A DNA stretch of 64,000 nt from Candidatus Eiseniibacteriota bacterium (GCA_030622115.1 JAUXGN010000003.1:35465-99464), one strand, 5' to 3'. Shown: positions 11,208 to 41,562, counted from the first letter of the stretch. The notes: generated from the letters alone by a model not told the origin. Numbers and translations are program-made.

Positions 11208-11290
11208 TCCAGCACTAGTCCAGGATGTGAAGTTCGCCCAGCACCAGCCCACCACGCGGATCTGATCCAGCACTAGTCCAGGATGTGAAG
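11208..11290. repeat. 25-bp direct repeat (TCCAGCACTAGTCCAGGATGTGAAG) at 11208-11232 and 11266-11290; the second copy is the last 5 codons plus stop of the minus-strand gene 11273..11908
   Basis: Exact duplicate read from the sequence; the reverse complement encodes …LHILD*. Confidence 0.8.
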
Positions 11291-11908
11291 AAGGTCGTGG
11301 AAGAGGAAGTGGAGCCGTCCGATCAGGAGGGATATCCGCGCCATCAGCGTGTAGCCGAACGACGCGCCGAATGAGATCATGATGAACACGATCCCGATCC
11401 TCGCTCCGGCGCCGAGCACTCCCTTGTGTGGTTTGGAGAAGTAGAAGTACATGAGCGTTGTCACGACGCCGATGACCAGAACGATATTGCTCAAATCCGT
11501 CACAGTGAACCCAGTTACGGGCAGGAGCGTGGCCGTGACCTGGGGGAGGACATAGCCCTGCAGGTTCGCGGTGATCCCAAGGCCCGCGCCGATTCCCACC
11601 GTGAAAGCGATAGGCCACCGGGATAGCCACGCGATCTTCGGGAACCACCGGGAGAGCATTATCAGACCGAGTGCCCCGGGGATGAGGATGATCCACTTCT
11701 CAAAGCCGGTCTCATTCATGAACGTGTCGATGAGCATCGGCTTGACATCGAAGAACACCACGTAGATGAGCCAGTACCCGGCGGACACGCCCACGTAGAG
11801 GTGCTCAGCCAGCTTGTAGAACGGGTTGTCCTTGTAGAGAAACGATAGAATGGCGAGCGTGAGAAAGCCCGCGAGCCACGTTCCTATGATTGTCCCCATC
11901 GAACCCAT
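11273..11908 (-). CDS. polytopic integral membrane protein (~6 TM), uncharacterised; last gene of the lat operon
   Basis: 211 aa, strongly hydrophobic with several predicted helices; 14-bp gap to the upstream gene. Confidence 0.55.
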   Translation of the reverse strand: MGSMGTIIGTWLAGFLTLAILSFLYKDNPFYKLAEHLYVGVSAGYWLIYVVFFDVKPMLIDTFMNETGFEKWIILIPGALGLIMLSRWFPKIAWLSRWPIAFTVGIGAGLGITANLQGYVLPQVTATLLPVTGFTVTDLSNIVLVIGVVTTLMYFYFSKPHKGVLGAGARIGIVFIMISFGASFGYTLMARISLLIGRLHFLFHDLLHILD

Positions 11909-11922
11909 TCGATGCCTCTACG

Positions 11923-12762
11923 CTAGTTCTTGCGTCTCGTGAAGAAGTATCCCAGATTCCCGAGCACGATGAATCCTATGACGAGCAGATGCGCCCATTG
12001 CTGAGCCGGCATACCTCTGGTGGCCAGCCCAAGATGGCCGATCAGATTCTCGTACTCCGCGGCCCCTTTGAGTCCTCCGACAAGTCCTTCGATCTGTCCT
12101 GCCTGGAGATACGGATATGCGTCCGGGGCCATCACGGCAGTTGTTCCGAAGGTCATTCTCTGGCTGAATCTGGCCTGTGTGTAGCGCACCCAGTAGTCGA
12201 TGACGGCGCCATGCTCGAACCCGAAAAGGAGTTCGATGTCGTCGTAGGAGCGCACCCCGGTCATGACGGGAAGCTCGGCGAGCGGCGTGCCTCGGTAGTC
12301 GCTCGCGAAAATGTCGCCGATGTCACGGCCCATGGCGATCATCACGGCGATGTAGCCGGGACGGTAGCCGAGGTCGACGTAGTCGATGCCGTACTCCTTG
12401 TCGTACTCTGCTGCGATCTCCTCGAGCGCCATGTGTCCCAGGGGAAGACCAATGGCAATGTGACCGAGCATAGCGACCTTCACGTCCTTTGAGAACGCGT
12501 GTCTCAAGGCCGAGCGCAGCATCGGCATGAGCTCCGGCGCCGATGTGGCGTCGAAGTCTATCGAGACCATCATAACGTCCCCGGCCTCTAGTGATTCTAC
12601 GGCATCGTAGGCGAGCTGCACTGGTCGTGTCGGTGGGATCGGGGCGCCCACATTCAGAAGCAGCGGAATCGCGACGCAGACAAGCAGGATCAGAAAGATG
12701 ATCCTCCGGTCGAGGTTATTCATTGCTTCCCAGAAGCCTCTCTTCGGGGCGCTCTCCAACAT
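11923..12762 (-). CDS. bitopic membrane protein (N- and C-terminal TM helices flanking a ~200-aa soluble domain), uncharacterised
   Basis: 279 aa; TM 'IIFLILLVCVAIPLLL' near the N-terminus and 'LLVIGFIVLGNLGYFF' near the C-terminus. Confidence 0.55.
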   Translation of the reverse strand: MLESAPKRGFWEAMNNLDRRIIFLILLVCVAIPLLLNVGAPIPPTRPVQLAYDAVESLEAGDVMMVSIDFDATSAPELMPMLRSALRHAFSKDVKVAMLGHIAIGLPLGHMALEEIAAEYDKEYGIDYVDLGYRPGYIAVMIAMGRDIGDIFASDYRGTPLAELPVMTGVRSYDDIELLFGFEHGAVIDYWVRYTQARFSQRMTFGTTAVMAPDAYPYLQAGQIEGLVGGLKGAAEYENLIGHLGLATRGMPAQQWAHLLVIGFIVLGNLGYFFTRRKN

Positions 12763-12814
12763 TCGCTCCTATGCTCTTCTGCGTACGTTCCAATCCACTG
12801 AGTGGCTGCCCTCG

Positions 12815-13447
12815 CTACGAGAGGTAGCTTCGCTCAATGCCGAGTATGATCCTGAGAGACATTGAGACGGCGCCAAGCGCCGCTCCTATCTGTATTCCAC
12901 GCTTCGCTGCGAGCTGTGGGACATCCATTATCCACTCCTGCGCCGCCGGGAAGAAATCCGAGATCGCTGCGCCTATCGGCACTCTGCCAAGCATGACGAT
13001 GATGGCGGAGACCAGAAGCAGCGTGGCGATGGTGTTTCTGGCCCTGAAGGCCCGGTACGACGCGGACGCGATGAAGAACGCGAGAAGTGCGAACATCGTG
13101 CCCTGCAGCGGCACGATGACGTATGTGTATACGAACATGAACGGGGACTGCATGTGAAACGGGCTCCCGAAGCGTGCGAAGCCGATCGCTCCAACCACCA
13201 CGGTAACGACAAGTCCCACCAGGAGCGCGATGCTGTGTCCCCACCCTGTGTCCGTTCTGGCGATTCGCTTGGCGTGGGATCTGATCAGGTTATCGACTCC
13301 GAGGAGCATCGTGAAGCCCGAAACGATCGCAAACCACACCAGCAGCCGCTGCTCAAGTTCACCGAACGGCTCGTGTGGGATGAAGAACGCCACAATCAGA
13401 AAGAACCCGGTCAGGAATGTGATGACAAGAGGTACGGTTCTCTTCAT
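12815..13447 (-). CDS. polytopic integral membrane protein (~6 TM), uncharacterised; same size and topology class as 11273..11908
   Basis: 210 aa, hydrophobic; 7-bp gap to the upstream gene. Confidence 0.55.
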   Translation of the reverse strand: MKRTVPLVITFLTGFFLIVAFFIPHEPFGELEQRLLVWFAIVSGFTMLLGVDNLIRSHAKRIARTDTGWGHSIALLVGLVVTVVVGAIGFARFGSPFHMQSPFMFVYTYVIVPLQGTMFALLAFFIASASYRAFRARNTIATLLLVSAIIVMLGRVPIGAAISDFFPAAQEWIMDVPQLAAKRGIQIGAALGAVSMSLRIILGIERSYLS

Positions 13448-13454
13448 TGTTCGG

Positions 13455-14657
13455 CTAGCTCCCTGCCATCCACTGTTTCACTGTCTCCAACGCTCCGGAC
13501 AGCGCCGATGTTCCATCGGGCGCGATCGCGTACCCGATCGAGGCCAAGATGACCAGACCGACTACCAGATAAACGATTCCGATCTTGATCAGATCCTGAC
13601 CCTTGAGACTGCCCAACATGACGGGTTCGTGCGACAGATAGCTCGAAGCAGCGAAGATTTCCTCACCGATCAGTGTGTAGTCGCAAGCCGCGACGAAGAA
13701 CGGCAGCTGTGATGTCTCCTTCGTACCCGATATCTGAATGGCCCCGATTTCGTGCGCCGTCTCCGCCAGAATGAGTGACTCTGCGGCGAAGTAGCCGAGA
13801 AGGAAAACGGCTTCGGGCCGCTCGCGGACCATGATGCCGTCCACGCCCGCCGTGTATCCAAACTGGTCGTATGTGAGGTAGAAGACGCTCGACGGATCGA
13901 ATCTGTCCGACTGTCCCACCTCGGCGTAGGCCTGTTTCACGATCTCCTGTGCCGTGGTCATGACGATCGGATCTGCCGTCGGGACCAGAAGCGGCGTGCC
14001 GTGCTGCGCTACCTTCTTGGCCACGTGGCCAAGGATCGTGAGCGCAGCAAGCGTCCCGACCTCGCTCACAGTCTCGATTCCCGGCACATACAGCACCGGC
14101 CGTCCCATCTCTGTGGCCCGTCCCACGGCGTCGTCAACGGCGTCGAGTCCCGGTATCTTCCGTATGAAAAGCTCAGTTCCCGCCTTGGCACGGACGATAA
14201 AGAAGATGATCGAACCGCAGACGAGGATGACGGCGATGAGAGAACTGACCCGTCCGTGAGCGAACCACTGGGCCGTCGCAATGGCGGCGTCGCTCGGGAC
14301 CGAATCAACGAATCCGTCTATCGTGTGTGTACGAACGATGTACTGGTAGGTTCTGCCGTGATCGGCGTCCGCATCGACGAAGCCGGAATCCCTGGGTGGC
14401 GCTTCGCCGATGGAGGCAGGCTCTTCACCGGCCGCGTAGCGGAGTACCTCGAACCGCGTCACGGCAGGAGAGATGGTTGTGGTCGCAAGTTCCCAGGAGA
14501 CCGCGATTGCTCCTCCGCCATCGTCAGGAACATCATAGGCGGAGACACTACAGACGCACGGTGCCGGAGCCGGCGCCGGGGGAGCGGCTGCGCTCCCCCC
14601 AGCGACGGCGAGGATACTAAGCAGTACGAGAGTTACTGTGAGGCTCAGGTGCCTCAA
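13455..14657 (-). CDS. membrane protein with signal peptide, Pro/Ala-rich linker, extracytoplasmic beta-sandwich (FN3-like) region, TM helix, ~200-aa cytoplasmic domain and a C-terminal TM helix; uncharacterised
   Basis: 400 aa; the start codon abuts the lat stop (translational coupling); 'PPAPAPAP' linker; TM 'LIAVILVCGSIIFFIV' and 'IGIVYLVVGLVILASIGY'. Confidence 0.55.
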   Translation of the reverse strand: MRHLSLTVTLVLLSILAVAGGSAAAPPAPAPAPCVCSVSAYDVPDDGGGAIAVSWELATTTISPAVTRFEVLRYAAGEEPASIGEAPPRDSGFVDADADHGRTYQYIVRTHTIDGFVDSVPSDAAIATAQWFAHGRVSSLIAVILVCGSIIFFIVRAKAGTELFIRKIPGLDAVDDAVGRATEMGRPVLYVPGIETVSEVGTLAALTILGHVAKKVAQHGTPLLVPTADPIVMTTAQEIVKQAYAEVGQSDRFDPSSVFYLTYDQFGYTAGVDGIMVRERPEAVFLLGYFAAESLILAETAHEIGAIQISGTKETSQLPFFVAACDYTLIGEEIFAASSYLSHEPVMLGSLKGQDLIKIGIVYLVVGLVILASIGYAIAPDGTSALSGALETVKQWMAGS

Positions 14658-16022
14658 CTATAACTCCTTTGCTGCTCTTGTTATTGCATCGAGGGCCGTG
14701 TCGACCTCTGTGGACAGAACGTTGAGAGGTGGCCTGAATCGTACCGCCAATGGACCGGCAGAGAGAGCCATGACTCCGTATCCGGCGAGCCGGCCAAGAA
14801 GCCCATCGCGCATCTCGGACGAAGGCAGGTCGAACGCGGACATCAGTCCACGACCGCGAACGTTGGTGATCTTGCCGCCGGAATCATTCGCGATGCCGGT
14901 TATGCCGTCCAGGAAGCGCTTGCCCATTGAAGCCGCGTTCTCGACGAGATTCTCTTCGACGATCACCTCGATGTAGCGCTGGCAGCGAACCATATCGACC
15001 AGGTTGCCGCCCCATGTCGAGTTGATCCTTGATGACACGGCGAAGACGTTGTCCTCTACCTCCATGATCCTGTCGGAGGCCATGATCCCGCAGATCTGGG
15101 CCTTCTTGCCGAAGCACGCGATGTCGGGAACGAACCCGAGCTGCTCGAAGGTCCACATCGTTCCGGTCATTCCCATACCCGTCTGGATCTCGTCGACGAT
15201 CAGAAGGATATCCTGCTCGTCGGCGATCCGGCGCAGCGCCTGGAAGAACTCAGGACGGAAATGGTTGTCTCCGCCTTCGCCCTGGATCGGCTCAATCAGT
15301 ATGGCTGCGATGTCATTGGGGTTGTCCGCGATCGCCTTGTCTATCTGCGAAATGGCCTCACGCTCGGCCTTCTCAGTGGCCGCCAGATTTTCGCCCTCGA
15401 GAGGGAACCTCGCCTTGGGATTGAGGATGCGGGGCCAGTCGAACTTGGGGAAGTACTGGGTCTTCCTTGGGTCGAAGGTGTTGGTCACGGACAGTGTGTA
15501 GCCGGACCGGCCGTGGAACGCCTGCTCGAAGTGGATGACCTTCGATCCCTTCACCTCGTTGTCCGGCATGTCGGACGTGTTCACACCTGCTGCGATGTTC
15601 TTGCGTACCTTCCAGTCGAACGCGGTCTTGAGAGCGTTCTCGACGGCCAGAGCTCCTCCACTGATGAAGAAGAGGTGCTTGAGCTTGGGATGCGCGGCGA
15701 ATCTGCCGAACGTGTCAACAAACTCGGCCATCTCCGTCGTGTAAAGATCTGAGTTTGAGGGCTTGTTGATGGCCACTCTGCCCAGCTTCGCCACGAACGC
15801 GGGGTCCGTGAGTCTGGGATGGTTGAGCCCGATGGGGGAGGACGCAAAGAACGTGAAGAAATCGAGGAAGTCCTTCCCTGTGCGGGAATCGTGAATATAG
15901 GCTCCCTTGCTCTTTTCGAGATCGAGAACCATGTCGAACCCGTCGGCAAGTATGTACTTGCCCAACGTCTCATGCACCTTGTCCGGTGCTACCGTGCTGA
16001 CGAGTTTCCTCTCCGCCATCAC
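14658..16022 (-). CDS. lat: L-lysine 6-(epsilon)-aminotransferase, class III PLP aminotransferase
   Basis: 454 aa; 'NKPSNSD', 'FFISGGALAVENALKTAFDWK' and 'LLIVDEIQTGMGMTG' blocks, and an overall length matching actinobacterial Lat. Confidence 0.75.
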   Translation of the reverse strand: MMAERKLVSTVAPDKVHETLGKYILADGFDMVLDLEKSKGAYIHDSRTGKDFLDFFTFFASSPIGLNHPRLTDPAFVAKLGRVAINKPSNSDLYTTEMAEFVDTFGRFAAHPKLKHLFFISGGALAVENALKTAFDWKVRKNIAAGVNTSDMPDNEVKGSKVIHFEQAFHGRSGYTLSVTNTFDPRKTQYFPKFDWPRILNPKARFPLEGENLAATEKAEREAISQIDKAIADNPNDIAAILIEPIQGEGGDNHFRPEFFQALRRIADEQDILLIVDEIQTGMGMTGTMWTFEQLGFVPDIACFGKKAQICGIMASDRIMEVEDNVFAVSSRINSTWGGNLVDMVRCQRYIEVIVEENLVENAASMGKRFLDGITGIANDSGGKITNVRGRGLMSAFDLPSSEMRDGLLGRLAGYGVMALSAGPLAVRFRPPLNVLSTEVDTALDAITRAAKEL

Positions 16023-16285
16023 TGCCTCCGTTGTAACTTGCGGTGTTCGTTGGGTGGTTTAGTCAGATCCCGCGCTCGTCCGGAATCGCACGGCCCGGGC
16101 CTTTGCGGTCTGCTCTCGGCCCGACCCGGGGAGCACCGGTACCCGGAATGCGCGGCCAAGTTACCAATTCTATCAGTCTGCCGGGAGCAGTGTCCACCCG
16201 AATCTTGCGGCCCCTAGGGAACGCATGGGTACATGGTGACCCACGCAGCTGGGTAAGGAAGCCGGCCCACTTCGGTATCGCGGGC

Positions 16286-17206
16286 CTACTTCCGAGGAAA
16301 GAGGATCTGCAGTAGGGCAGGGGCTACGGGACGTCTCCGGAGTTGCTCCTCGATCTCCGTGCGGTCAAGGATCCCCTTCTCTGTGATCACGGATCTCACG
16401 AGATCGAGCGGGACAGCCTCGAGGTAGCCGTTCTCGACGGTGAGGTGAGCCGGTGGGTCACTGAGGATCTGGCTCGGATCGGCGAGACGGTTCCTGTTCC
16501 CCGCGAGCGCTTCAGGGATGAACCTATCCATGGGAGCTGCCACAACCATGGGCACATCATGCTCCCTGGCGGCGAGCGCAAGAGGGTAGGCGCCCGTTTT
16601 GCACACGATCTCTTTTGAGGTCACGCTGTCAGCGCCAATGAGTACGAGCCCACATTCAGAGATGCGACGGGGAAGGGCGGCGTCCACGACGAGGACGACC
16701 TCGATTCCAAGTGCCGATATCCGACGGGCCTGGGTCACGCCTTCCAGGACCGGGCGCGACTCAGACATAAGGACACGGAAGTTCCTTCCCGTCTCGCGTG
16801 CCTGCCGCAAAACTGCAAGTACACACTCACTCGTGCTGAGCGTCACGATAGTGACGTCATTCGTCACAATCTCGCATCCCTTCCTCCCGATGCGTTCGGT
16901 CGCCATTTCCGAACGTTCGATGGCCCGCTCGCATGCCATCGCGACCATTCCTCTCAGTGCCTCTATGCTGAGCCCGGAGAGAACCACACGCTGGGTGGCT
17001 GAGAGGATCTCTCCGGCGAGGTTGATAACCGGTGCCATTTCCCGCTGGGCGTTGGCAAGCTCCGTGCAAGCGGTCGTCAGCTCTTCCCAGAACTCCCCAG
17101 GGTCGGCCGCTTTCGAGGCTTCCGCCATCCCGGCCATCTCGAGAGCAGCCGCCCGCATGATCGCGGAAGCGCCCGAAGTAGAATCCAGTGCCAGCTGTTC
17201 GAACAT
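16286..17206 (-). CDS. eIF-2B alpha/beta/delta-family protein (ribose-1,5-bisphosphate isomerase / MTR-1-P isomerase-like)
   Basis: Real start is 'MFEQLALDSTSGAS…' at 17206. The six-frame ORF extends to 17554 through Pro/Arg-rich intergenic translation. Conserved 'VLVVDAALP…GADSV…KTGAYPLALAAREHDVPMVVAAP' core. Confidence 0.65.
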   Translation of the reverse strand: MFEQLALDSTSGASAIMRAAALEMAGMAEASKAADPGEFWEELTTACTELANAQREMAPVINLAGEILSATQRVVLSGLSIEALRGMVAMACERAIERSEMATERIGRKGCEIVTNDVTIVTLSTSECVLAVLRQARETGRNFRVLMSESRPVLEGVTQARRISALGIEVVLVVDAALPRRISECGLVLIGADSVTSKEIVCKTGAYPLALAAREHDVPMVVAAPMDRFIPEALAGNRNRLADPSQILSDPPAHLTVENGYLEAVPLDLVRSVITEKGILDRTEIEEQLRRRPVAPALLQILFPRK

Positions 17207-17301
17207 GGAGGCCTCCGTATGTGGAAGGGCATGATGAGAGCCCAGATGCGACACCGGTCTACGATGCTGGAATGACCATATCACCGGCTGGACTGGATGC
17301 G

Positions 17302-17323
17302 CCACTGCCATTCGTAGTATACT
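17302..17323 (+). promoter_or_regulatory. possible -10 element (TATACT at 17318-17323) for the ABC-F gene; no convincing -35
   Basis: Seen in the sequence 41 nt upstream of the ATG at 17364. Confidence 0.25.
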
Positions 17324-17363
17324 CCTGAAGTTCACAGAGTTCCTCTTTAAGAGAAGGCAGCGC

Positions 17364-19364
17364 ATGGTACTTCTGAGTGAATTGAGCATTTCCTTTGGCG
17401 GAACGCCCCTGTTCCGAAATCTCAGCTGGCGTGTCGGGGACCGGGACCGCGTCGGTCTCGTCGGGCCGAACGGTTGTGGAAAGACCACGCTTCTCCGACT
17501 GATCATGCGGGATGTGGGGGTCGATGCCGGGACCATCTCTGCCTCAAAGGGCACGACGTACGGCTACCTGCCTCAGGAGGAACTCACCGTATCCGGACGG
17601 ACGCTGTTCGATGAGGTGATGACCGTCCACGGCGAACTCCTCGAGATGGAGGTGCGCATGCGCGACCTCGAGCATCTCATGGCCGATACCGACCCGGATG
17701 GAAGCGAGCACGCGCGCGTCATGCGGGAGTATGCGGATCTCCAGCACCGCTTCGATGTGATGGGAGGCTTCACGATCGAGACACGTGTCGCGGAGGTTCT
17801 GTCCGGTCTAGGATTTACCCAAGATGACCACAGGAGGATGACTGAGGAATTCAGCGGCGGGTGGCAGATGCGGATCGCACTTGCGAAGCTCCTGCTCGCG
17901 TGCCCGACAGTGCTTCTCCTGGATGAGCCCACGAACCACCTGGATCTGGAATCCATCATCTGGCTTGAGGAGTACCTGTCGACGTATCCCGGAGCTGTGG
18001 TGCTCGTTTCTCACGACCGCTCGTTTCTTGACAGAGTCGTCTCCCGCATCAGTGAGCTCAGTTCCACGGGGATCGCCGACTACACGGGTGGCTATACGTC
18101 CTTTCTTGAGCAGCGAGAGAAACAGCGCGACGTGCTGATGGCAACCAGGCGTCAGGAGGAGCGGAGGATCGCGCACCTCCAGCGATTCGTGGACAGGTGG
18201 AAAGGCGACAAGAAGAAGGCGCCGCTCGTTCACAGCCGCGAGAAGATGATCGCACGCATCGAGCTTACGGAGATTCCACGGAGTACCAAGGCGATACACT
18301 TCAAGTTCCCGCAGCCTGAGCGGGGCGGAGCGGTGACGGTTTCCCTGAAGGGAATCCGTCAATCATACGGTGACAATGTTGTCTTCGACGGTCTGGATCT
18401 TGAGATCATCCGCGGAGATCGCGCGGCACTGGTCGGCGTGAATGGGGCCGGCAAATCGACACTGATGAAGATCATCGCCGACAAAATCGCGATAGCACGT
18501 GGCGAGAGGAAACTCGGGCACAACGTCACGATGCAGTACTTCGGTCAGGATCCGACCAAAGAGCTCAACCTCAACAACACCGTGCTGGGTGAGCTCGAGA
18601 CTGTCTCTCCCAATGACATGCGACCGAGGCTCCGCGGCCTGGCCGGAGCATTCATGTTCACCGGCAGCGACATCGACAAGCGAGTCAGTGTGCTGTCGGG
18701 CGGAGAGAAGAGCCGTCTCGCGTTCGCCAAGATGCTGCTCAGATCGGCCAACCTGCTCCTCCTCGACGAACCCACAAACCATCTGGACGTCGCATCGCGA
18801 GAGGTCCTCGAAGGAGCGCTCTCTCGATACGAGGGCACGATCTGCTTCGTGTCGCATGACCGCTCGTTCATGGACGCGATAGCGACCAAGGTCATCGAGG
18901 TCGGTGGCGGAACGCTGCGGACGTACATCGGTACGTACAGTGACTATCTCTGGGCCAAGAAGCGCGAGGCAGAAGAGAAGAACGTCTCACGCGGAGGGGG
19001 GAGCTCGGGAGGCCCGCGCAGCGCTCTGGGAGGCTTGCGGCACTCCGGGCGTTCGGACGGGGAAGCTCCCGCAAAGACCGGTAAGAGAAGAAGCGGTGGA
19101 CCCAAGAGCAAGGAACAGAAACGTCGGGAGGCCGAGGAACGGCAGAACGCCTCGCCGGCGAAGAAGGCTCTTCGCAGGAAATTGCGAGAGGCACGAGAAC
19201 GAATAGAAGTTGGAGAGAGCAGGCTCGAGGAGATCCTGATCGCGCTGACGGATCCAGCGGTCTACGGCGACGGGATGAAGGTCAAGGCGCTCTCGAACGA
19301 GCAGGAGGCGATTCACCAACGGGTCGACGAGCTCTACGGGTTCCTGGCCGAGCATGACGACTGA
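17364..19364 (+). CDS. ABC-F family ATPase (two ABC domains plus a C-terminal Lys/Arg-rich coiled-coil extension, Uup-like)
   Basis: 666 aa; two Walker A motifs (GPNGCGKTT, GVNGAGKST), two LSGGE/LSGG signatures, no TM domain, basic C-terminal tail. Confidence 0.85.
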   Translation: MVLLSELSISFGGTPLFRNLSWRVGDRDRVGLVGPNGCGKTTLLRLIMRDVGVDAGTISASKGTTYGYLPQEELTVSGRTLFDEVMTVHGELLEMEVRMRDLEHLMADTDPDGSEHARVMREYADLQHRFDVMGGFTIETRVAEVLSGLGFTQDDHRRMTEEFSGGWQMRIALAKLLLACPTVLLLDEPTNHLDLESIIWLEEYLSTYPGAVVLVSHDRSFLDRVVSRISELSSTGIADYTGGYTSFLEQREKQRDVLMATRRQEERRIAHLQRFVDRWKGDKKKAPLVHSREKMIARIELTEIPRSTKAIHFKFPQPERGGAVTVSLKGIRQSYGDNVVFDGLDLEIIRGDRAALVGVNGAGKSTLMKIIADKIAIARGERKLGHNVTMQYFGQDPTKELNLNNTVLGELETVSPNDMRPRLRGLAGAFMFTGSDIDKRVSVLSGGEKSRLAFAKMLLRSANLLLLDEPTNHLDVASREVLEGALSRYEGTICFVSHDRSFMDAIATKVIEVGGGTLRTYIGTYSDYLWAKKREAEEKNVSRGGGSSGGPRSALGGLRHSGRSDGEAPAKTGKRRSGGPKSKEQKRREAEERQNASPAKKALRRKLREARERIEVGESRLEEILIALTDPAVYGDGMKVKALSNEQEAIHQRVDELYGFLAEHDD

Positions 19365-19470: not shown

Positions 19471-22400
19471 CTACTTCAGCAAAACGACCTTCTTCGTCAG
19501 CTTCGTGGCATCGGAAGTGAGTCTCACGAAGTAGACTCCGGATGATGCACGTTCGCCGTGGTCGTCAAGCCCGTTCCATACTACCGTCTTCCGCCCGGCA
19601 GACATCTCCTCTGCGAGAAGCGTCCGCACATGCTCACCGGCGACGTTGAAGACGCCGAGTTCAACCGCAGCGCCCCCATCAGGCACGAGGAAAGCGATGG
19701 TAGTGGTCGGATTGAACGGGTTCGGGAAGTTCTGTTCCAGGACCATTCGGCCGTGCGTCGTAACCCCACCCTCGTGCACACCAACCGGCTCCTCATATCC
19801 GAAGAATCCATTCCGGAGGAAGTTGTGCCGGAACGTCGCCCACTGGACACCGCTGCCGTCGTCGTAGTCACCCTCGACGTCCCAGACATACACGTTGGCG
19901 TCCATACCCGAGACGATGACCTCTACGTCACCATCATCATCGAAGTCGACGAGGGTCGGCGTGCAATAGATCTCGGCATCAGTCTGGATCGGCCATCCGG
20001 CCAGGATGCTGCCGTCGTCATCGAAGGCGTAGACCTTGCCGCTGTTGCATCCGATGACGATTTCCCAGTCGCTGTCGCCATCTATGTCGCCGACGGCAGG
20101 ACTCGAGTGGGTTCCCTCATCCATCATCTGAGGCCACCCCGGCAGACTGGAGCCGTACCAGGTCCATATATAGATACTGCCATCGACTCCTGCCTGGATA
20201 ATCTCGAGTTGACCGTTGCCGGTGATGTCGGCGACGGTGGGAGAGGGAGGAAAGTCCCCGCCCATGTCGACGTTCTTCGGCCAGCCGGGAAGCACCATAC
20301 CTTCGTGGTCGAACACCCATAGCGAGTCGTCATCCGCCGCAGCCAATACCTCAAGATCTCCATCGCCGTCCAGATCTGCGACGCAGGGGGATCCGATCGA
20401 TTTCTCCGATATGCGAACGGGCCAGCCCGGGACCCGCGTCCCGTCGGGGTTGAAGCAGTAGATGCTCTCTGAGCGTGATGGAACCAGAATCTCCAGCTCG
20501 TGATCTCCATCCAGATCGACGATAACGGCCGATCCGTATGCCCACGAAGCCATCAGATCGGCGAAGACGCCGTCCGTCGCCGCGTTGTTGTCTCCATCGA
20601 TCAGCTCAGAGCCGTTCGCGCTCCAGGCGTAAACGAAGCCGTCCGCACAGGGGATCACGACATCGTCGAGTCCGTCATGATCGAGGTCACCGAGAGCGGG
20701 CGTCGCCCAGCAGAACTTGGTCGTTGTCTTCGGCCACCCGTCAAGCACGGTGGCGTCCTCTGCGTTCCAGGCGAAGATCTCGTATTCCGGCTGGGGATCG
20801 CCCACATTGGCCCACGCGGCGCAGACGATTTCCGGATAGGGGTCGCCGTCCATCTCACCCACGGCTATTGAGGACCTGTAGCCGCCCTGTCCGTCAACCT
20901 CATAGACGCCTTCGGTCCTCGGGTCGCCGTCCCCGTCCCGGTACTCGACGCCGTTGTGATGCCAGCAGTAGATGTGGCCTGCGCCCACGAGGAGTTCGAG
21001 GTCACCGTCGAGATCGATGTCAACAAGGGCAGGCGTCCCGTATATGGACTCGCCGCCTGGGAGTGGCCAGCCCGGCTGACTCGGGGGGTTCGTGCTTATT
21101 TCGATGATATCCGAGTGATCGCCCTCGTTGCCGGAGGAGTCGATCGCCGCGACCTCGTAGTAGTAGCGAGTATTCTCATCCAGGCCGGCATCTTCGAAGT
21201 AGGAGATGAGTTCAACTGTGCCGTTGTTGGCCTGTGAGTATGGTCCCGCGAGGTGTTCGGCGCGATAGATGTTGTATCCCCAGAGATCGACGTCGTCCGT
21301 GGGATCCCACGTGAGATAGATGGTCGTCGATTTGACGCGTCCGGCGAGATTGAGCGGTTCTGCTGGAGGCGTAAGGTCGAAGAGCAACGTCCAGATTTTG
21401 CCATCCTCGTCGGAGAGTTCGAGTTCAAACGGCTGTGTCACGGCTGACACGATGTCGAACTCAAAGCTGCCCGCGCTCGCCACCTCTTGTCCTGCTGCGA
21501 TGTCACCCCAGCTGTCGGTACTGTCGGTGATAGTAACCTCAGCGCCGGGGTAGCGGAGGGTCCCTGTGACCAGGTCGGCGTCGCCGTCACCCTCATTGAG
21601 GATATCGATCGTCAGAGTGAGGTGCTCACCGATGTCGGGGATGCCGTCGCCGTTTCCGTCATCGCTCGCGTGGTTCCTGAGCTGGACCGGGATCGGACGG
21701 AACACGCGGAGCGTGTACTCGCTTATCCATGAGAGACGAGTTCCCTCAGAGAACTCGACCTCAAGAACAGTCTCATACTCATTGGGGCACGTATCGGCAA
21801 TCGTGATGGCGAAAGGAGCCGAGAGCGGCATCTCACTCGTCGCAGCGATGTCGCCGATGTACTCCGTTCCGTCGATGATTGCGATCGCCGGGTCGGTGCT
21901 CGTGAGCGTAGCGGTTACGGCAGTCGCCTGAGTCTGCCCGGCATTTCCGATGAGCATGCTGATCTCGATGCTCTCACCGGCTTCGGGCAGACCGTTGGCG
22001 TTCCCGTCACTCGGTGCGACCGCGTCGTCGTCGAGTGTGACCGATCTCACGGTGACGTATGCCCCGGCCGATGAGGTGACGACGATCGTGTCCTCATACG
22101 GCAGCTGGTTGGCGGCCGTGACAGTGATCGTCATCGAGCCGGTTGTCAGAGGAGCAAAGGACAGGAGCGCCTGGCCGGACGCGTTCGTTAACCCCGTGGC
22201 ATAGACTTCGCCGTCCTTGACGACGCACACGAGCGCACTGTCGACCGCCGCAGGGTTCGAAACCGAAACCGCCAGAGCGACCTGGCCGAGTGGCACGGTG
22301 TTGTTGTGCACGACCGTCATGCCGGCCGGTCTCGCAGTCCAGAGCCGAGCTTCAGGGTCTCCGAGCAGGACGAAGCTCATCTGGGTCCAGCGGTCCGTGT

Positions 22401-24189
22401 TGTCATAGGCTGACTCGGCGACATACGGAACCTTGCACATCGCGCTGACCACCCCGGCGCGAGTTGTGTCGAACGCGTGGAGATACTCGAACCAGGAGTA
22501 GTAGTAGTCCTTTGCCGTGGTCGGGAAACAGAATCTCGTCGGGCCGTAGACAAACGCTGTACCCCCGCCAGGGTTGTTGAGCACGTGCTCCGCAATGCAG
22601 TCGTACTCGATGGCGGTCGAGGTGCAGTTGAGCATCCAGATGAGACCCGACTTGCTGATTCCGTTCGTGAGAGCGTCGACATCCTGTATCGTGACGTAGT
22701 TCTCGAATCCCGCCCGCATGATGTCCTTGTTCCCGTGGCCTACGTGCGAGATGATGTTGTAGCCGCGTTCGAGCGAATCAATCATCGATACCCTGTTCAG
22801 AGGGAAGGAACTCGGGAAAGGTGAGTAGTTCTGGTAGACGAGCGAGGTGTGAATGGCCGGCGGGATGAGATGCAGCATTGGCTCCACGACATGCTCGGCG
22901 CCGTCGGTGCTCACGTAGTCGCCCGGTTGCCAGTCGTATGGGAACAGGACCTCGGCGAGAAAGAGATCCCTCTCAGTGAAGAGGGGATCAGGCGTCGCGA
23001 CGTAGGAGATGGTCTTGTCCACGAACGTTTCGGCTTCGATGATATTCGTGACAGTGGCCCTTCCTACGAACACATCGGGGTAGAGATCCAGACTGTCACC
23101 CGGGGATGATACGCCTCCGTACCCTTCGCCGAAGTAGTTGTCACCGTCACCATTCCAGTTTCCATCGAGGTCGCTGTAATACAGGTCTGTTGAGATGTCC
23201 CATCCACCATAGTATGAAGAGCGAATGAAGCGAATGGGTACTATGTTCGTATCCCCGCCCAGAAGCACATATGTGGTTCCCCAGGAGGCGAAGGCATCCT
23301 GAATGAACAACCGAATCCGTTCCGCCGTGTCGCTGCCACCTGTGTAGTTGGCGTTGATCCACGAGACGGTCTTGACAACGGCCGGCACACCCTTCTTCGT
23401 CTTCCAGTCGGCGATATCCTGGAAGCAGGGCGCCAGGTTCTCATCGGTGATGATGACGTACTCGACAAGGCTCCCCTCGAGAGAAGGGCCGTACCGAGGG
23501 GCGAACGCGCCGGCGCCCGTTCCATCCACCACCTCAACCGACTGTTTCGCGAACGCGGCTACATCCTCGGGATTCTCGACGAGCCCACGGACGATGCTGC
23601 GATAGCGCTCGTCCGAGCTTGCCGTTATCCGGTGGCGAGGCGCCGACCGATCGACACTCGCCACGAGCTTGATCTGTGCGGAGAGGTCGGTTGTGAGAAC
23701 CAGTCTGCCCGACAGTGGGTGGTACCTGAGAGGGGAGAGGGCTATGCTGGCGATATGGTAGCCTCCGAGATATCCGTCACCCAGAAAGACCGCACGGTCC
23801 GAAGGGTAGATGGCGTCGCTCTCGTAGATCGAGGCGTCCGGATCGGCCCGGGGTGGCGTCTCGCCGATGGGAACCTCGGGCTGAACGGGACGAACCCTGT
23901 GGACGCCCGGCAGTTCCTCCTCGGCTGTGAACGAGATGATGATGTCTTCCACCGCCATGTCCGCCGGGATCACGAAGTGGATGACTCTTGCAGGGATAGC
24001 GGGCGCGCCGACCTCGGCGAGCGAGCGATGTCCCTCGAGAGCAAGCTTCGAGAAACCGTCTTCCTGCAGGATCTCAATCTGTGACACATCAACAGGGAGA
24101 TCCACAGATGGACCTGTTGCCGCTGCTGAGAGGGCGACCAACGCGATCAGACAGAGAGCCAAGGTGAGAGCTGCCAATCTGGGGGTCAT
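19471..24189 (-). CDS. giant secreted C25 (gingipain-like) cysteine peptidase with FN3 domain, FG-GAP/'GWP' beta-propeller repeats and a T9SS C-terminal sorting domain
   Basis: Start at 'MTPRLAALTLALCLIALVALSAAATG' with an AAGGAGG SD 5 nt upstream. The six-frame ORF extends to 24288. Catalytic His in 'SHVGHGN' and Cys in 'WMLNCTSTAIEYDCIAEH'. Repeated 'LDGDGDLE…PGWP' units. C-terminus 'FPNPFNPTTTIAF…GVYFVRL…KKVVLLK'. Confidence 0.75.
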   Translation of the reverse strand: MTPRLAALTLALCLIALVALSAAATGPSVDLPVDVSQIEILQEDGFSKLALEGHRSLAEVGAPAIPARVIHFVIPADMAVEDIIISFTAEEELPGVHRVRPVQPEVPIGETPPRADPDASIYESDAIYPSDRAVFLGDGYLGGYHIASIALSPLRYHPLSGRLVLTTDLSAQIKLVASVDRSAPRHRITASSDERYRSIVRGLVENPEDVAAFAKQSVEVVDGTGAGAFAPRYGPSLEGSLVEYVIITDENLAPCFQDIADWKTKKGVPAVVKTVSWINANYTGGSDTAERIRLFIQDAFASWGTTYVLLGGDTNIVPIRFIRSSYYGGWDISTDLYYSDLDGNWNGDGDNYFGEGYGGVSSPGDSLDLYPDVFVGRATVTNIIEAETFVDKTISYVATPDPLFTERDLFLAEVLFPYDWQPGDYVSTDGAEHVVEPMLHLIPPAIHTSLVYQNYSPFPSSFPLNRVSMIDSLERGYNIISHVGHGNKDIMRAGFENYVTIQDVDALTNGISKSGLIWMLNCTSTAIEYDCIAEHVLNNPGGGTAFVYGPTRFCFPTTAKDYYYSWFEYLHAFDTTRAGVVSAMCKVPYVAESAYDNTDRWTQMSFVLLGDPEARLWTARPAGMTVVHNNTVPLGQVALAVSVSNPAAVDSALVCVVKDGEVYATGLTNASGQALLSFAPLTTGSMTITVTAANQLPYEDTIVVTSSAGAYVTVRSVTLDDDAVAPSDGNANGLPEAGESIEISMLIGNAGQTQATAVTATLTSTDPAIAIIDGTEYIGDIAATSEMPLSAPFAITIADTCPNEYETVLEVEFSEGTRLSWISEYTLRVFRPIPVQLRNHASDDGNGDGIPDIGEHLTLTIDILNEGDGDADLVTGTLRYPGAEVTITDSTDSWGDIAAGQEVASAGSFEFDIVSAVTQPFELELSDEDGKIWTLLFDLTPPAEPLNLAGRVKSTTIYLTWDPTDDVDLWGYNIYRAEHLAGPYSQANNGTVELISYFEDAGLDENTRYYYEVAAIDSSGNEGDHSDIIEISTNPPSQPGWPLPGGESIYGTPALVDIDLDGDLELLVGAGHIYCWHHNGVEYRDGDGDPRTEGVYEVDGQGGYRSSIAVGEMDGDPYPEIVCAAWANVGDPQPEYEIFAWNAEDATVLDGWPKTTTKFCWATPALGDLDHDGLDDVVIPCADGFVYAWSANGSELIDGDNNAATDGVFADLMASWAYGSAVIVDLDGDHELEILVPSRSESIYCFNPDGTRVPGWPVRISEKSIGSPCVADLDGDGDLEVLAAADDDSLWVFDHEGMVLPGWPKNVDMGGDFPPSPTVADITGNGQLEIIQAGVDGSIYIWTWYGSSLPGWPQMMDEGTHSSPAVGDIDGDSDWEIVIGCNSGKVYAFDDDGSILAGWPIQTDAEIYCTPTLVDFDDDGDVEVIVSGMDANVYVWDVEGDYDDGSGVQWATFRHNFLRNGFFGYEEPVGVHEGGVTTHGRMVLEQNFPNPFNPTTTIAFLVPDGGAAVELGVFNVAGEHVRTLLAEEMSAGRKTVVWNGLDDHGERASSGVYFVRLTSDATKLTKKVVLLK

Positions 24190-24464
24190 CACTTCCTCCT
24201 TCACCGCTTGTGTTTTCGGTTCGAGCGCCTCAGGGACAAGAACGGGATCGAAGCGCATTGTCGTACGCCCGATCCCGGTGCAAGTCACGCGGATACAAAC
24301 AGAGAAACATTACCGCGCTCAGAGCTACCGTTGGGCATCGCTTTCACGATGCGTCAGATCATCAATGTCGGCTCTTTCAGGACGGTAGCAGTGTGGTGAG
24401 CGGTGTTTCTCCCCTGATGCAGCTGCCGGATGCGAATGCCAGCTTGATTGTTTCTATTGAAGAT

Positions 24465-24674: not shown

Positions 24675-27600
24675 CTACTTCAGGAGTACCATCTTGCGCG
24701 AGTCTTCCCAATCGCCGATGGCGGCACGGACGAAGTAGACTCCGGATGAGACCTGCCTGCCACGCGAGTCCTTCCCGTTCCAGACGACCAAGTGGTTCCC
24801 CGCGGTAGCTGGTCCATCAACCAGGACTGAGACAAGCCTGCCGGCGACATCGTAGACGGCGAGGCGTGCGTGCGCGCCCTCGAGACCTACCGCGTAGCTG
24901 ATCGTCGTGGTGGGGTTGAACGGGTTTGGTGCATTCTGGTGGAGCCGGTTCGGGAGCGCTGCAGAAGCGTCAGCCACTCCCGTGTTACCGATGAGATTGA
25001 GATCCGTGAGGATCCTGGTCACGTATTCGAGATGCGTCGATGGATATCCCGATCCCGTCATGCCGCCGAGGATCACCGGTATCATGTAGCGGTGTGATCC
25101 GGTTGCAGGATCGACATAGTGCGTTCCCCTGCACTCGAGACTCTGGTCGCTCCAGAGCAGAGCACTGCCGGGCTCGCCGTCGGGGCCGACCTTGCTGATG
25201 AACTGATCCGGATCGGCCTGGTAGTCATACGTGAAGTAGAGTCCATCCATGACAGTTCCGGTTGCGCCATCCAGTGACTGGACGTTCCCGATGCTCTTCC
25301 CGTTCCCCATCGCGTACGTGCAATGGAAGCGCTCCCACAGATCCAGCGTCGTTTCGGTTCCGTTGACCTTGTACTGGCCACCGAAGTTCGGTTCCTCAGT
25401 GTAGAGGCTTCCGCCGTCGTCCACGAACGCGATGAGCTGAGCAGCTTCATCGTCCGACATCGGTACGTTGAAGCCGCCGAAGTTGATGACCCCGCCCAGA
25501 TAGATGATGAGGTCGAAGGGACTGAGATCTTCCGGCAGCGTCTCGGAGTAGATGTAGAACTCGCCTATCGAGTCAAGCGTCTGAAGCCACGGCACTTCCG
25601 TGCCGTCTTCCTCAGAGAAGGTATCGTTCACTCCGTCGAACGGCATGTCGCCGTCGTCGGCGTCCCACAGGAGTACCTTGGCGTTCACGCTTGCTGCTAT
25701 CGGACCGACGCAGTCAACAAGACTGTCCTCGTTGCCCCAGAGATCTCCCGCCATCACCGCGTAGTAGTATGGCTCCGCATTCGACACGGTTGTGTCGTCG
25801 AGAGTCGTGCCGTCGGGCACGAGCAGCCCGGAAGCGATGGGCGTGAGTCCGGACACGTCCGCGAATGGCGTGGACTCGCGGTAGACCTTGTAGTACGCAA
25901 AGTCGCTGGGGGCGACATAGCCCGTCCAGTCGAGTTCCACGAGGCCGCCCAGATCGAACGGATCGGCAGCTATCAGCGTGCCGATGGGGTCGGGCGCGGT
26001 CGTGTCCAACGGCTGGTCGACGATTGTGAGTGTCTCTTCGTGAGGAAGCATGTCGGGTCCCGTCACCATCATGGAGAGAGCGCCCTCGACAGTCGGATCG
26101 ATGTCCACTTCAGCGATTCCATCGGCGCCCGTTGTGAAGACCGCATCGATCTCATCGTTGTGAAGGTAGATGGACACGCCTTCAATGGCTCCATCATCAT
26201 TCTGAATCGTTACAACGAACGGCTCACCGGATAGCGGGATACTCGTGGGGCAGTTAACGGTCGCGGTTGAAGGCTCGTGAGACCATATCCTCATCTCAGG
26301 ATCACCCAACAGATTCAGCTCGTAGAGCACGTAGCGCGTGTAGCCATCGGTACGGGCTTCGCTGACGAACACATCCTTGTGAGCAGCGTGGGCCACGCCG
26401 ATGATATCGTTGCCGTGGTTGTACAGCTGGCTGAAGAACTCGCGGTCGTACCGATCGGACGTTCCGTTGCCTGGTCCACCGGGCGAGCCCCATCCATAGC
26501 GGCTGTTGCCGACAAATGCCACGCCGCCGCCGGGAGAGTTCATCCAGTGCTCGGCGATACAGTCGTAGTCGATGGCGGCCGGATAGCATCCGATCGTCAC
26601 GAAGATGCCCTGCCTGTCTCCGTTGCTCATGCCATCGAAGTCGGAGCGGTAGAGTGACGAGCTGCCGATGCAGAGGACACTGTAGTGGGCGTGGCCGTTG
26701 TGATTCGTGATGTTCTGACCGGCGTTGAGATTGCTCATGGTTCGCGATTTCGTCAGGAGTCCGTTCGTTTCATAGAGCTTCGTGATCGGATCGAACTGTC
26801 CGGGAACCGATTCATCGTCGATGTAGTTCTTGCAGATGGCATGGTCGGTCCATGGATCGGTCCACAGCACTTCCGCGAGGAAGAGCATGTTCTCCTGGTA
26901 GTCGGTAGGGAGCGTGTTCCCGGCAGGAGAACCCTCGTACGTGAGAACCTTCGTGACGAAGCGCGATGCTTCCGTCGTCGAGTTCACTGGAGCGCGGCCG
27001 ACATAGACGTCCGCATAGAGATCGATGCTGTCCTGCGTGATCTCGCCCCATGTGCTGTCGCCATCGCCGTTCCACGTGCCATCGAGGTCGCTGTAGTAGA
27101 GATCGCAGATCGGCGAATTCTCGCTTCCGCTTCCGACGTTGTATGCGTAGGCTGCACGCGCCGGCACGATATTGGTGTCGCCTCCCAGGAGAACCCACAG
27201 AGTGCCGTGGTTCTCGTAGTAGTCGATGATACAGTTTCGGACCATCTCCGCGTTGTCGACACCGTCGTAGTTCGCATAGATCCAGGAGGTCGAAACAATC
27301 TCTGTTGTGAGGCCCTTCTGTTCCTTCCAGTCGGCAAGAGGCTGGAAGAGGGACTCGTATGTTGAGCTTGTCACGATGAGATAGTCGACTTGATCATCTC
27401 TTGTCGTGAGGGTGGAAGCCGCCTCAACATCATACGGATTGACCACGAAGTCCCTGACCCTCCCGACCACAACCGCATCCGCCCGTTCAGATCGTCTCGC
27501 GGGGACCCGAGATACTCTCGTGTCCCGCTCGAGTTCGAGAGTGACAGTGATGCTCTCATTCAGCGTAAGCCTGCCGTCGAGCGGACTGTACTGGAGTGGG

Positions 27601-28079
27601 TAGACCGCAACCGTCGCAACCCGATGTCCGGACATGTTGCCCGTGTCCATGAGGCGACAGGCCATCGAAGGATACGGCGCAGGCGACTCATATACGCTCG
27701 GTTCGGGGTCGATCCACTCCGGGATCCTCGGGAGCGAGAGCGGGATCTGCGGCTGGACCGGTCGGATTCTGAATCTTTCGGGAAGCACGCTCACTCGCGC
27801 GACCGTCGCTGATGCGCTCGAGGCCGTCATCCCGTCAGGGAGAGCGAATCGTATGAATGCGACCGGGAGTTCCGGGCGACCCAGTTCGAGCGTGGATCTC
27901 AGGCCTTTCATCTCTATGACATCGTACCCGGTCACGCGTGAGGTCACGAGTTCGTGAGACGAGAACTCCATCGAATATGCAAGTGAAGGGGCCGCGAGCG
28001 CGGCCGGAGCCCAGAGACACATGATCATGACGACCACGAGGGCTGAAGACAATACGATCCGACGCTCAGACAGCCGCAT
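24675..28079 (-). CDS. second secreted C25 (gingipain-like) cysteine peptidase with T9SS C-terminal sorting domain; paralog of 19471..24189
   Basis: Start 'MRLSERRIVLSSALVVVMIMCLWAPAALA' with the AAGGAGG SD at a 6-nt spacing. The ORF's first ATG at 28085 abuts the SD. Shared 'LLGGDTNIVP', 'GHAH…' and 'IDYDCIAEH' blocks. C-terminus 'APNPFNPTTTISY…GVYFVRA…RKMVLLK'. Confidence 0.75.
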   Translation of the reverse strand: MRLSERRIVLSSALVVVMIMCLWAPAALAAPSLAYSMEFSSHELVTSRVTGYDVIEMKGLRSTLELGRPELPVAFIRFALPDGMTASSASATVARVSVLPERFRIRPVQPQIPLSLPRIPEWIDPEPSVYESPAPYPSMACRLMDTGNMSGHRVATVAVYPLQYSPLDGRLTLNESITVTLELERDTRVSRVPARRSERADAVVVGRVRDFVVNPYDVEAASTLTTRDDQVDYLIVTSSTYESLFQPLADWKEQKGLTTEIVSTSWIYANYDGVDNAEMVRNCIIDYYENHGTLWVLLGGDTNIVPARAAYAYNVGSGSENSPICDLYYSDLDGTWNGDGDSTWGEITQDSIDLYADVYVGRAPVNSTTEASRFVTKVLTYEGSPAGNTLPTDYQENMLFLAEVLWTDPWTDHAICKNYIDDESVPGQFDPITKLYETNGLLTKSRTMSNLNAGQNITNHNGHAHYSVLCIGSSSLYRSDFDGMSNGDRQGIFVTIGCYPAAIDYDCIAEHWMNSPGGGVAFVGNSRYGWGSPGGPGNGTSDRYDREFFSQLYNHGNDIIGVAHAAHKDVFVSEARTDGYTRYVLYELNLLGDPEMRIWSHEPSTATVNCPTSIPLSGEPFVVTIQNDDGAIEGVSIYLHNDEIDAVFTTGADGIAEVDIDPTVEGALSMMVTGPDMLPHEETLTIVDQPLDTTAPDPIGTLIAADPFDLGGLVELDWTGYVAPSDFAYYKVYRESTPFADVSGLTPIASGLLVPDGTTLDDTTVSNAEPYYYAVMAGDLWGNEDSLVDCVGPIAASVNAKVLLWDADDGDMPFDGVNDTFSEEDGTEVPWLQTLDSIGEFYIYSETLPEDLSPFDLIIYLGGVINFGGFNVPMSDDEAAQLIAFVDDGGSLYTEEPNFGGQYKVNGTETTLDLWERFHCTYAMGNGKSIGNVQSLDGATGTVMDGLYFTYDYQADPDQFISKVGPDGEPGSALLWSDQSLECRGTHYVDPATGSHRYMIPVILGGMTGSGYPSTHLEYVTRILTDLNLIGNTGVADASAALPNRLHQNAPNPFNPTTTISYAVGLEGAHARLAVYDVAGRLVSVLVDGPATAGNHLVVWNGKDSRGRQVSSGVYFVRAAIGDWEDSRKMVLLK

Positions 28080-28130
28080 CTGCATCCTCCTTGAGCCGAC
28101 AATAACAACCATAACTACAACTATTACCAT

Positions 28131-31126: not shown

Positions 31127-31211
31127 TACAGCTGTGGTTGATTCAATACTCTTGCGGACTCCGGACTGCTGAAGGGTGTCGGGGGGACGTGCCAATGTGG
31201 AGGGTGTGTTG

Positions 31212-41516: not shown

Positions 41517-41562
41517 CTCATGCATGCACTTGCGATGGCCGCGCAGTCGCAGGAAGGTGAGT

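Follow-up and report, generated by a model that had tools for sequence, protein, structure and literature searches.

Organization of the lat-ABCD locus

The locus described here lies within a 64,000-nucleotide stretch of DNA from a Candidatus Eiseniibacteriota bacterium (GCA_030622115.1, JAUXGN010000003.1:35465-99464), which we refer to as the window. It consists of five co-directional genes in series on the minus strand: lat, predicted to encode an L-lysine 6-transaminase, followed by genes for four predicted membrane proteins that we call A, B, C, and D (Table 1; the boundaries of these five genes were taken from an open reading frame (ORF) listing and direct reading of the sequence). An earlier note on this DNA had proposed that the membrane proteins form a complex dedicated to the aminotransferase and to lysine. 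Comparison with related loci supports a different view, which we hold with high confidence, in which ABCD is an autonomous, conserved module whose link to lat is specific to one lineage.

The stop codon of lat (TAG, 14660..14658) abuts the TTG start codon of A at 14657 with no gap, and an AAGGAG Shine-Dalgarno sequence sits 6 nt upstream of this TTG, inside the end of lat, an arrangement compatible with translational coupling. The remaining junctions are short: 7 bp between A and B (13448-13454), 52 bp between B and C (12763-12814), and 14 bp between C and D (11909-11922). A scan of the locus for terminator-like sites found none between the five genes; the only two sites detected are weak, lie within coding sequence, and are fewer than expected from shuffled sequence. 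By these features the five genes are packed in the manner of one operon. Both the spacing of the genes and their packing as an operon had been described in the earlier note, and direct reading of the sequence, together with the short gaps and the lack of an intergenic terminator-like site, bears this out.

A 25-nt perfect direct repeat, TCCAGCACTAGTCCAGGATGTGAAG, occurs at the downstream end of the locus at 11208-11232 and 11266-11290, with a degenerate third copy at 11237-11261 and a periodicity of 29 nt. One copy overlaps the final codons of D and its stop, and the second is found within the 84-bp spacer that separates D from a convergent GNAT gene; the repeat could be a small duplication of the 3' end of D or a repeat element.

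Table 1. Positions of the lat-ABCD genes, of features within and beside them, and of other genes in the 64-kb window, counted from its first nucleotide
Feature	Position	Strand	Length	Remarks
M3 peptidase	1293-3404			
S9 peptidase	6407-8911			
Gene D	11273-11908	minus	211 aa	
Gene C	11923-12762	minus	279 aa	
Gene B	12815-13447	minus	210 aa	
Gene A	13455-14657	minus	400 aa	
DUF6754 region of A	13533..14276	minus		Residues 128-375: transmembrane helix, conserved alpha/beta domain, second transmembrane helix
FN3 beta-sandwich of A	14283..14561	minus		Residues ~33-125
lat	14658-16022	minus	454 aa	GTG start reading
Promoter-like site	16196..16167	minus		TGGACA, 18 nt, TAGAAT, extended -10; 10 of 12 matches; consensus match only
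IF-2B-family gene	16286-17206	minus	306 aa	From ATG 17206; PF01008, E = 2.5e-44; domain match from residue 10
ABC-F-type gene	17364-19364	divergent		
C25 gingipain-like peptidase	19471-24288	minus		
C25 gingipain-like peptidase	24675-28130	minus		
Protein without Pfam match	28349-29584	minus	~415 aa	
Protein without Pfam match	29693-30952	minus	~415 aa	
CsgG-family lipoprotein gene	31176-32147	plus		
DUF401 membrane protein	41524-42774	plus		

Conservation and duplication of the ABCD module

A genome scan for homologs of A yielded 507 confirmed loci, and the best 80 of these were analyzed. Gene presence was judged by tblastn with the window proteins, and ORF calls in these loci are mechanical. 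The 80 loci come from Eisenbacteria, Zixibacteria, WOR-3, Fermentibacteria/Aegiribacteria, Ignavibacteria, TA06, Cloacimonadota, Stahlbacteria, Acidobacteriota, and unclassified metagenome-assembled genomes, representing at least 8 phyla. A, B, C, and D occur together and co-directionally in nearly every locus that is long enough, with median intergenic gaps of 12, 0.5, and -1 nt (68-90 instances), and the window conforms to this pattern of co-directional A (carrying DUF6754), B, C, and D with short junctions. Across phyla, the module proteins are conserved at 45-55% identity.

Tandem ABCD-ABCD(-ABCD) arrays are found in Zixibacteria, Ignavibacteria, WOR-3, and TA06, with paralogs inside a locus sharing 44-60% identity; no second copy is present in the 64-kb window. 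In multi-copy loci, the best match of each copy was always in another locus and never in its own (70 versus 0 cases for A, 55 versus 0 for B, 49 versus 0 for C, and 47 versus 0 for D). This pattern places the duplications far back in time and shows that the four genes were copied as a block; no other observation argues as strongly that the products of A-D would function together. Across FCB-group candidate phyla, A-D is an ancient self-contained module whose genes are passed on and copied as one.

Among these best 80 of 507 loci, lat adjoins the module only in L001-L011, the closest relatives of the window (62-93% identity in A), three of which are labeled Eisenbacteria. The other 69, including two further Eisenbacteria (L044 and L078), have no lat beside the module. 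The gap between lat and A is 0-1 nt in L001-L003, approximately 17-70 nt in L004-L006 and L009-L011, and approximately 195 nt in L008, and could not be resolved in L007. Throughout L001-L011, the whole region is collinear, running from the ABC-F gene through the IF-2B-family gene, lat, and ABCD to the GNAT gene, so the adjacency of lat reflects general synteny rather than specific coupling. The lat linkage is thus a lineage-specific feature inside the general synteny of one Eisenbacteria lineage. Persistence of the lat synteny in relatives had been chosen beforehand as a test of the dedicated lysine complex, and it is absent outside the immediate clade (11 of 80 loci). With 69 loci lacking lat, the clade region collinear throughout, and the module duplicating without lat in many phyla, that proposal is not supported.

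The aminotransferase, its leader, and the upstream isomerase-like gene

The lat product scores 653.3 bits against TIGR03251 (cutoff 520.8), with residues 13-450 aligned to profile positions 1-431 of 433, and it carries a class-III aminotransferase domain (PF00202, E = 3e-80). A match above the equivalog cutoff over the full length identifies it, by profile, as a genuine L-lysine 6-transaminase (LAT), a class-III pyridoxal phosphate-dependent aminotransferase. Translation probably starts at the ATG at 16019 rather than at the GTG at 16022, because the ATG is favored by the spacing of a GGAGG sequence. No further lysine-pathway gene was found near lat.

Upstream of lat, 263 bp separate it from the IF-2B-family gene, and the promoter-like site in this gap is a candidate promoter for a lat-ABCD transcript. 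The leader was also considered as a site for a lysine riboswitch or similar RNA structure, an idea rejected because an Rfam search returned no element in these 263 bp at E values up to 1, and no match above the gathering score anywhere in the window.

The IF-2B-family protein falls under every NCBIfam equivalog cutoff, the top match being to ribose-1,5-bisphosphate isomerase (131 bits versus 314), and by its profile matches it is best described as a divergent sugar-phosphate isomerase-like protein. Its gene is syntenic with lat in all seven clade loci that reach far enough upstream. It had been suggested that this gene might share a unit with lat; the 263-bp gap with its promoter-like site points instead to a separate transcription unit, which we consider probable. 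A mechanical ORF of 422 amino acids (16286-17554) overextends this gene and overlaps the divergent ABC-F gene.

Predicted domain structure and topology of the module proteins

Protein A is predicted to consist of a signal peptide, an extracytoplasmic FN3 domain, a transmembrane (TM) helix, a cytoplasmic DUF6754 alpha/beta domain of approximately 200 amino acids, and a second TM helix. The TM helices span residues ~135-158 and ~353-380, and positive residues (RAKAG...FIRK) follow the first. The TTG start is necessary to encode the signal peptide and is retained in full-length homologs (L001 and P0001, the latter with 93% identity and 100% coverage). The match to Pfam DUF6754 (PF20539) is strong (E = 2e-111, 371.6 bits versus a gathering score of 27), with residues 128-375 on profile positions 2-249 of 257. 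More than 7,600 homologs of A were found in a protein collection, and PF20539 was present on all 120 among the matches listed. An alignment of 38 sequences shows approximately 70 invariant columns in the cytoplasmic DUF6754 domain, where polar and acidic positions are frequent (for example, R166, E183, D251, E293, E299, D326, and E332-E333). The AlphaFold2 model of A has a mean pLDDT of 73, and residues 267-330 fall below 50, so that the DUF6754 domain is partly modeled. Searches against PDB profiles matched FN3 alone and nothing over the DUF6754 region, and FN3 matches made up all 60 among the matches listed in a fold search of A. In several triple arrays (L029, L036, L052, L059, and L068), the third copy of A is merely ~270-300 amino acids long and probably lacks FN3; if so, FN3 would be an accessory rather than a core part of the module.

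Family-averaged hydrophobic segments predict approximately six TM helices in B and in D. By the positive-inside rule B would have both termini in the cytoplasm, and the charge distribution of D is ambiguous for orientation, so we do not claim that the two lie in opposite orientations in the membrane as in NqrD/NqrE. The most conserved stretches of both proteins are charged loops of short length: in B, SASYRAFRARN and GIERSYL, which the positive-inside rule places in the cytoplasm, and in D, LYKDNPFYKxAE and YFFFSKEHKG. Although B and D resemble each other on visual inspection, they were rejected as a paralogous pair, because hhalign, run in two independent ways, gave probabilities no higher than 3%. 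The B family comprises 2,420 representatives at 50% identity. Neither B nor D has a Pfam, NCBIfam, or PDB profile relative, and no consistent Pfam or NCBIfam match emerged among 37 members of the B family and 29 of the D family. Stray matches to TMD0_ABC in 6 of the 37 B members and a single match to ABC2_membrane_3 are not credible evidence of an ABC permease.

Many B homologs (among P0243-P0389) are 260-670 amino acids long and have a large insert after approximately residue 100, at a site predicted to be the periplasmic loop between TM3 and TM4. A Pfam scan of ten such inserts was uninformative as to function, with one WD40 beta-propeller, eight inserts without a match, and one marginal match to DUF2157.

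Protein C has an N-terminal TM helix, a 224-amino acid doubly wound Rossmann-like alpha/beta domain, and a C-terminal TM helix, and was modeled with a pLDDT of 93.6 and a pTM of 0.87. The domain is probably periplasmic: it is acidic and the short tails at either end carry positive charge, a distribution that by the positive-inside rule would put the domain outside the cytoplasm. By fold it matches Rossmann-like domains of a generic kind, with which it shares 5-13% identity. Foldseek neighbors include halves of GT-B glycosyltransferases, again generic Rossmann matches with TM-scores of 0.2-0.35. Fold searches singled out no specific enzyme family and no characterized transporter, respiratory, or defense family, and C has no relative in Pfam, NCBIfam, or the PDB profiles. 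Paralogy between C and the DUF6754 domain of A was likewise suggested by visual resemblance and was rejected on the same grounds as that between B and D (hhalign probabilities again no higher than 3% in both runs).

The descriptions of these proteins in the earlier note hold in part. The FN3-like sandwich and the ~200-amino acid cytoplasmic domain of A are recovered, and its description as bitopic is not, since two TM helices remain after cleavage of the signal peptide; the supposed second bitopic protein, C, likewise has two TM helices, flanking its domain. For the two ~210-amino acid proteins, six TM helices each are retained and any similarity going beyond that is lost, as hhalign detects no homology between them. 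Protein A, which had been thought unassignable along with the other three, belongs to DUF6754, a family without known function; it remains true that none of the four falls in a characterized family.

The module contains no transporter ATPase, and no Walker A/B nucleotide-binding subunit was found in or beside the operon. The nearest ABC protein, encoded divergently, carries ABC_tran_Xtn and ABC_tran_CTD domains and is of the soluble ABC-F type, in agreement with the earlier claim that an ATPase is missing from the module. Pfam and NCBIfam searches found no credible ABC permease match for B and D across the 37 B and 29 D family members. They also found no ECF, TRAP, or TTT subunit (EcfT or S-component, DctQ/DctM, TctA/TctB) in A-D at E values up to 1 or among those same family members. 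Homology to an annotated transporter, for instance ECF or ABC permease components, had been named beforehand as the finding that would count against the novelty of the module; with none found for A-D by sequence, or for C by fold, the claim that they belong to no known transporter family stands. A known defense system was ruled out by a search of A-D with PADLOC anti-phage defense models, which gave no match at E values up to 0.01.

Proposed function and alternative readings

Our best overall reading, on which our confidence is evenly divided, is that ABCD encodes an uncharacterized four-subunit inner-membrane complex, probably a translocation system, beside which lat was acquired in one Eisenbacteria lineage. 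Co-inheritance and duplication of the whole module make it likely that the products of A-D form a single membrane complex. The more specific claim that this is a transporter or translocase is tentative, and we place it somewhat short of even. Translocation is favored because of the ancient tandem paralogs, the TonB-dependent uptake and amino acid catabolic genes among the neighbors of the module, and the proteolytic genes of the window. In Fermentibacteria, the module neighbors a TonB-dependent receptor with ExbB, ExbD, and TonB, and upstream genes in other phyla encode GcvT/GcvP of glycine cleavage or urocanase and an amidohydrolase. The window itself encodes M3, S9, and two C25 peptidases and thereby indicates a proteolytic lifestyle.

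In such a translocation system, the four proteins would assemble into one inner-membrane complex of approximately 16 TM helices. B and D would form the membrane core, with their charged loops docking the cytoplasmic DUF6754 domain of A, and the Rossmann-like domain of C and the FN3 of A would face the periplasm. The complex would move a solute or a small envelope substrate across the inner membrane. As there is no P-loop ATPase, transport would be coupled either to an ion gradient or to some partner that is not linked to the module. The lat gene would have been grafted onto the ABCD operon secondarily and at most hints at amino acid-derived substrates in this proteolytic organism.

Several observations weigh against this reading. 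No component has detectable homology to a known transporter family (Pfam and NCBIfam for B, C, and D; PDB profiles), and the generic character of the fold matches to C, at such low identity, weakens the analogy with a binding protein. The DUF6754 domain is modeled at low confidence over residues 267-330, and the fold matches listed for A were filled by FN3. The cross-phylum identity of 45-55% is unusually high for substrate-specific transporters and suits core machinery, and the recurrent Tol/Exb, TolB, and LptE neighbors suit an envelope role equally well. Complex assembly, topology, and activity are themselves predictions from sequence. A fuller version of the translocation reading is more speculative, and we think it rather unlikely to be right in all its parts. 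In this version, the DUF6754 module would be an unrecognized translocation machine, widespread in FCB-group candidate phyla and built of four subunits, in which a cytoplasmic alpha/beta domain without a P-loop would serve as engine or gate and a receptor-like domain in the periplasm would be held by two TM anchors. It might work with partners in many lineages (the c4 and c5 proteins described below), and its tandem copies would differ in substrate, the Eisenbacteria copy serving amino acid- or lysine-linked uptake.

The main rival to a translocation system is a cell-envelope machine, engaged in lipid, glycan, or outer-membrane trafficking or in division-linked remodeling and tied to Tol/Exb and to c4 and c5, a reading to which we give a fairly low probability. 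Outside the clade, c4 and c5 are the commonest upstream neighbors of the module. The first is a 620-amino acid actin-fold ATPase of the MutL/GlmL family (PF13941, E = 4e-123) with no B12 mutase nearby. The second is a highly conserved protein of 375 amino acids (67% mean column identity) with only weak matches to barrel-sandwich hybrid domains, among them that of RnfC_N (E = 3e-4, below cutoff), and nothing credible among PDB profiles. In 15 to 19 of 47 informative loci, one or the other is found no more than 5 kb upstream of the first A gene, and ABCD adjoins c5 in 18 of 35 informative c5-centered metagenome loci. Ahead of c4-c5 there are usually genes for a further two small membrane proteins, designated c11 and c6. 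The genes occur both in a co-directional order, c11-c6-c4-c5-ABCD, and in a divergent one, with ABCD facing c4-c18-c5-ExbB/TolQ-ExbD/TolR-TonB/TolA-TolB; the association of ABCD with c4/c5 therefore survives rearrangement, though it is not obligatory. An envelope role would also fit the further module neighbors LptE and TolB, the TonB-dependent receptor, the very high conservation across phyla, the periplasmic FN3 of A, and the GT-B halves among the Foldseek neighbors of C, although these last are no better than generic Rossmann matches. Set against it, two or three ancient tandem paralogs are characteristic of substrate-specific systems and would be out of the ordinary in a core envelope machine, approximately half of the c5 loci lack ABCD, and no c4, c5, c6, or c11 occurs within 64 kb in the window and its clade.

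The c11-c6-c4-c5 string is conserved across several phyla (L012-L160, for example L012:4408-6794, L014:6788-7909, L086, and L095), with ABCD adjoining it in approximately half, and in Zixibacteria-type loci the string is joined to a TolQ-TolR-TolA-TolB cluster. The MutL-like c4/c5 pair looks like an uncharacterized system in its own right. The idea that an absent ATPase or partner is hidden elsewhere in the window was rejected, as its 64 kb contain no homolog of c4, c5, c6, c11, or c18. A search of one literature library returned no mention of DUF6754, PF20539, or PF13941 and nothing relevant on Eisenbacteria and LAT.

A dedicated lysine or diamine uptake or channeling system, or a membrane metabolon with LAT, would apply to this Eisenbacteria copy only, and we consider it improbable. 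The stop-start abutment with its internal Shine-Dalgarno sequence speaks for it, as does the retention of the lat-ABCD order in 11 related loci, down to 62% identity in A and mostly with gaps of 0-70 nt. Other phyla have different amino acid catabolic genes upstream of the module, and the organism is proteolytic, with gingipain-like C25 peptidases. These points are countered by the absence of lat from 69 of 80 loci, including two other Eisenbacteria, and by the duplication of the module without it. In the 11 positive loci, the ABC-F, IF-2B-family, and GNAT genes are syntenic as well, so the position of lat beside the module is not in itself informative. The surroundings contain neither a lysine riboswitch nor a further gene of the lysine pathway, and LAT is soluble, with no membrane-docking feature identified.

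Least probable, and quite improbable in our judgment, is a membrane-anchored enzyme or group-translocation system in which catalysis would fall to the DUF6754 domain, to the C domain, or to the two of them, with B and D serving as a scaffold or conduit: the approximately 70 invariant columns, many of them polar or acidic, and two soluble alpha/beta domains of folds common in nucleotide- or sugar-utilizing enzymes would suit it, but no cofactor or nucleotide motif, P-loop, or GxGxxG was recognized by eye or by Pfam, fold searches single out no enzyme family, and NAD(P) or nucleotide chemistry would be unlikely if the C domain is periplasmic.

Genomic surroundings and significance

The two C25 gingipain-like cysteine peptidases of the window are very large and have propeptide and FlgD_ig-type C-terminal domains, and one of them also contains FG-GAP beta-propeller repeats. 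Beyond them lie two adjacent proteins without a Pfam match, with a CsgG-family lipoprotein gene alongside, and, further on, a DUF401 membrane protein (Table 1).

Thousands of genomes from little-studied and for the most part uncultured phyla (among them Zixibacteria, WOR-3, Fermentibacteria, Ignavibacteria, Eisenbacteria, and Cloacimonadota) carry ABCD, many of them in several copies. A new transport or envelope machine, if that is what the module encodes, would supply a missing piece in the metabolic reconstruction of sediment and digester organisms and would represent a new membrane architecture. The lat junction also carries a lesson for annotation: it is an accident of operon structure confined to a single lineage, and the label "lysine transporter" should not be propagated from it. 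The lat link amounts to ordinary operon drift, and the ABCD module itself is a worthwhile dark-matter target.

Comparison with known systems

On present sequence comparisons, the module cannot be filed under the ABC, ECF, TRAP/TTT, Rnf/Nqr, or Tol/Exb systems. It is apparently of a new kind, a provisional classification that rests on the lack of a sequence match and, for C alone, of a specific fold match.

Two of the five gene products do have catalogued relatives. The window lat agrees with the L-lysine 6-transaminases of TIGR03251 in scoring above the equivalog cutoff along its full length. The LAT of characterized systems is soluble, acts in catabolism or biosynthesis, and is not known to have a dedicated membrane partner; the window lat differs in having as its operon partner a module that exists without lat in 69 of 80 loci. 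Protein A is a full-length, high-scoring member of Pfam DUF6754 with the N-terminal FN3 usual in that family. The DUF6754 entry carries no function, and the obligatory partners B, C, and D have no family entry.

The Rnf and Nqr complexes combine a pair of ~200-amino acid subunits with six TM helices each (NqrD/NqrE, RnfA/RnfE) with a TM-anchored subunit bearing a periplasmic domain (NqrC/RnfG). The module has a similar six-TM pair and a TM-anchored subunit with a probably periplasmic domain, and its frequent neighbor c5 gives the weak, below-cutoff match to RnfC_N. It differs from these complexes in lacking any Rnf-Nqr or FMN_bind match in Pfam and NCBIfam, in having no conserved Cys or His for cofactors among its invariant columns, in the Rossmann-like rather than FMN_bind fold of C, and in the lack of homology between B and D.

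In layout, the module loosely resembles a binding-protein-dependent importer (ABC type I, TRAP, or TTT), with a permease-like pair, a tethered receptor-like domain, and a cytoplasmic alpha/beta domain. It departs from these importers in that B and D have no BPD_transp_1, DctQ/DctM, or TctA/TctB match, in that no Walker-type ATPase is present, and in the form of C, a single Rossmann-like lobe on two TM helices rather than a two-lobe soluble or lipid-anchored protein. The likeness is therefore one of layout only, and it lies in two polytopic subunits of ~210 amino acids with conserved charged loops, in the cytoplasmic alpha/beta domain, and in the occurrence of the module in tandem paralogous copies, as in substrate-specific uptake loci.

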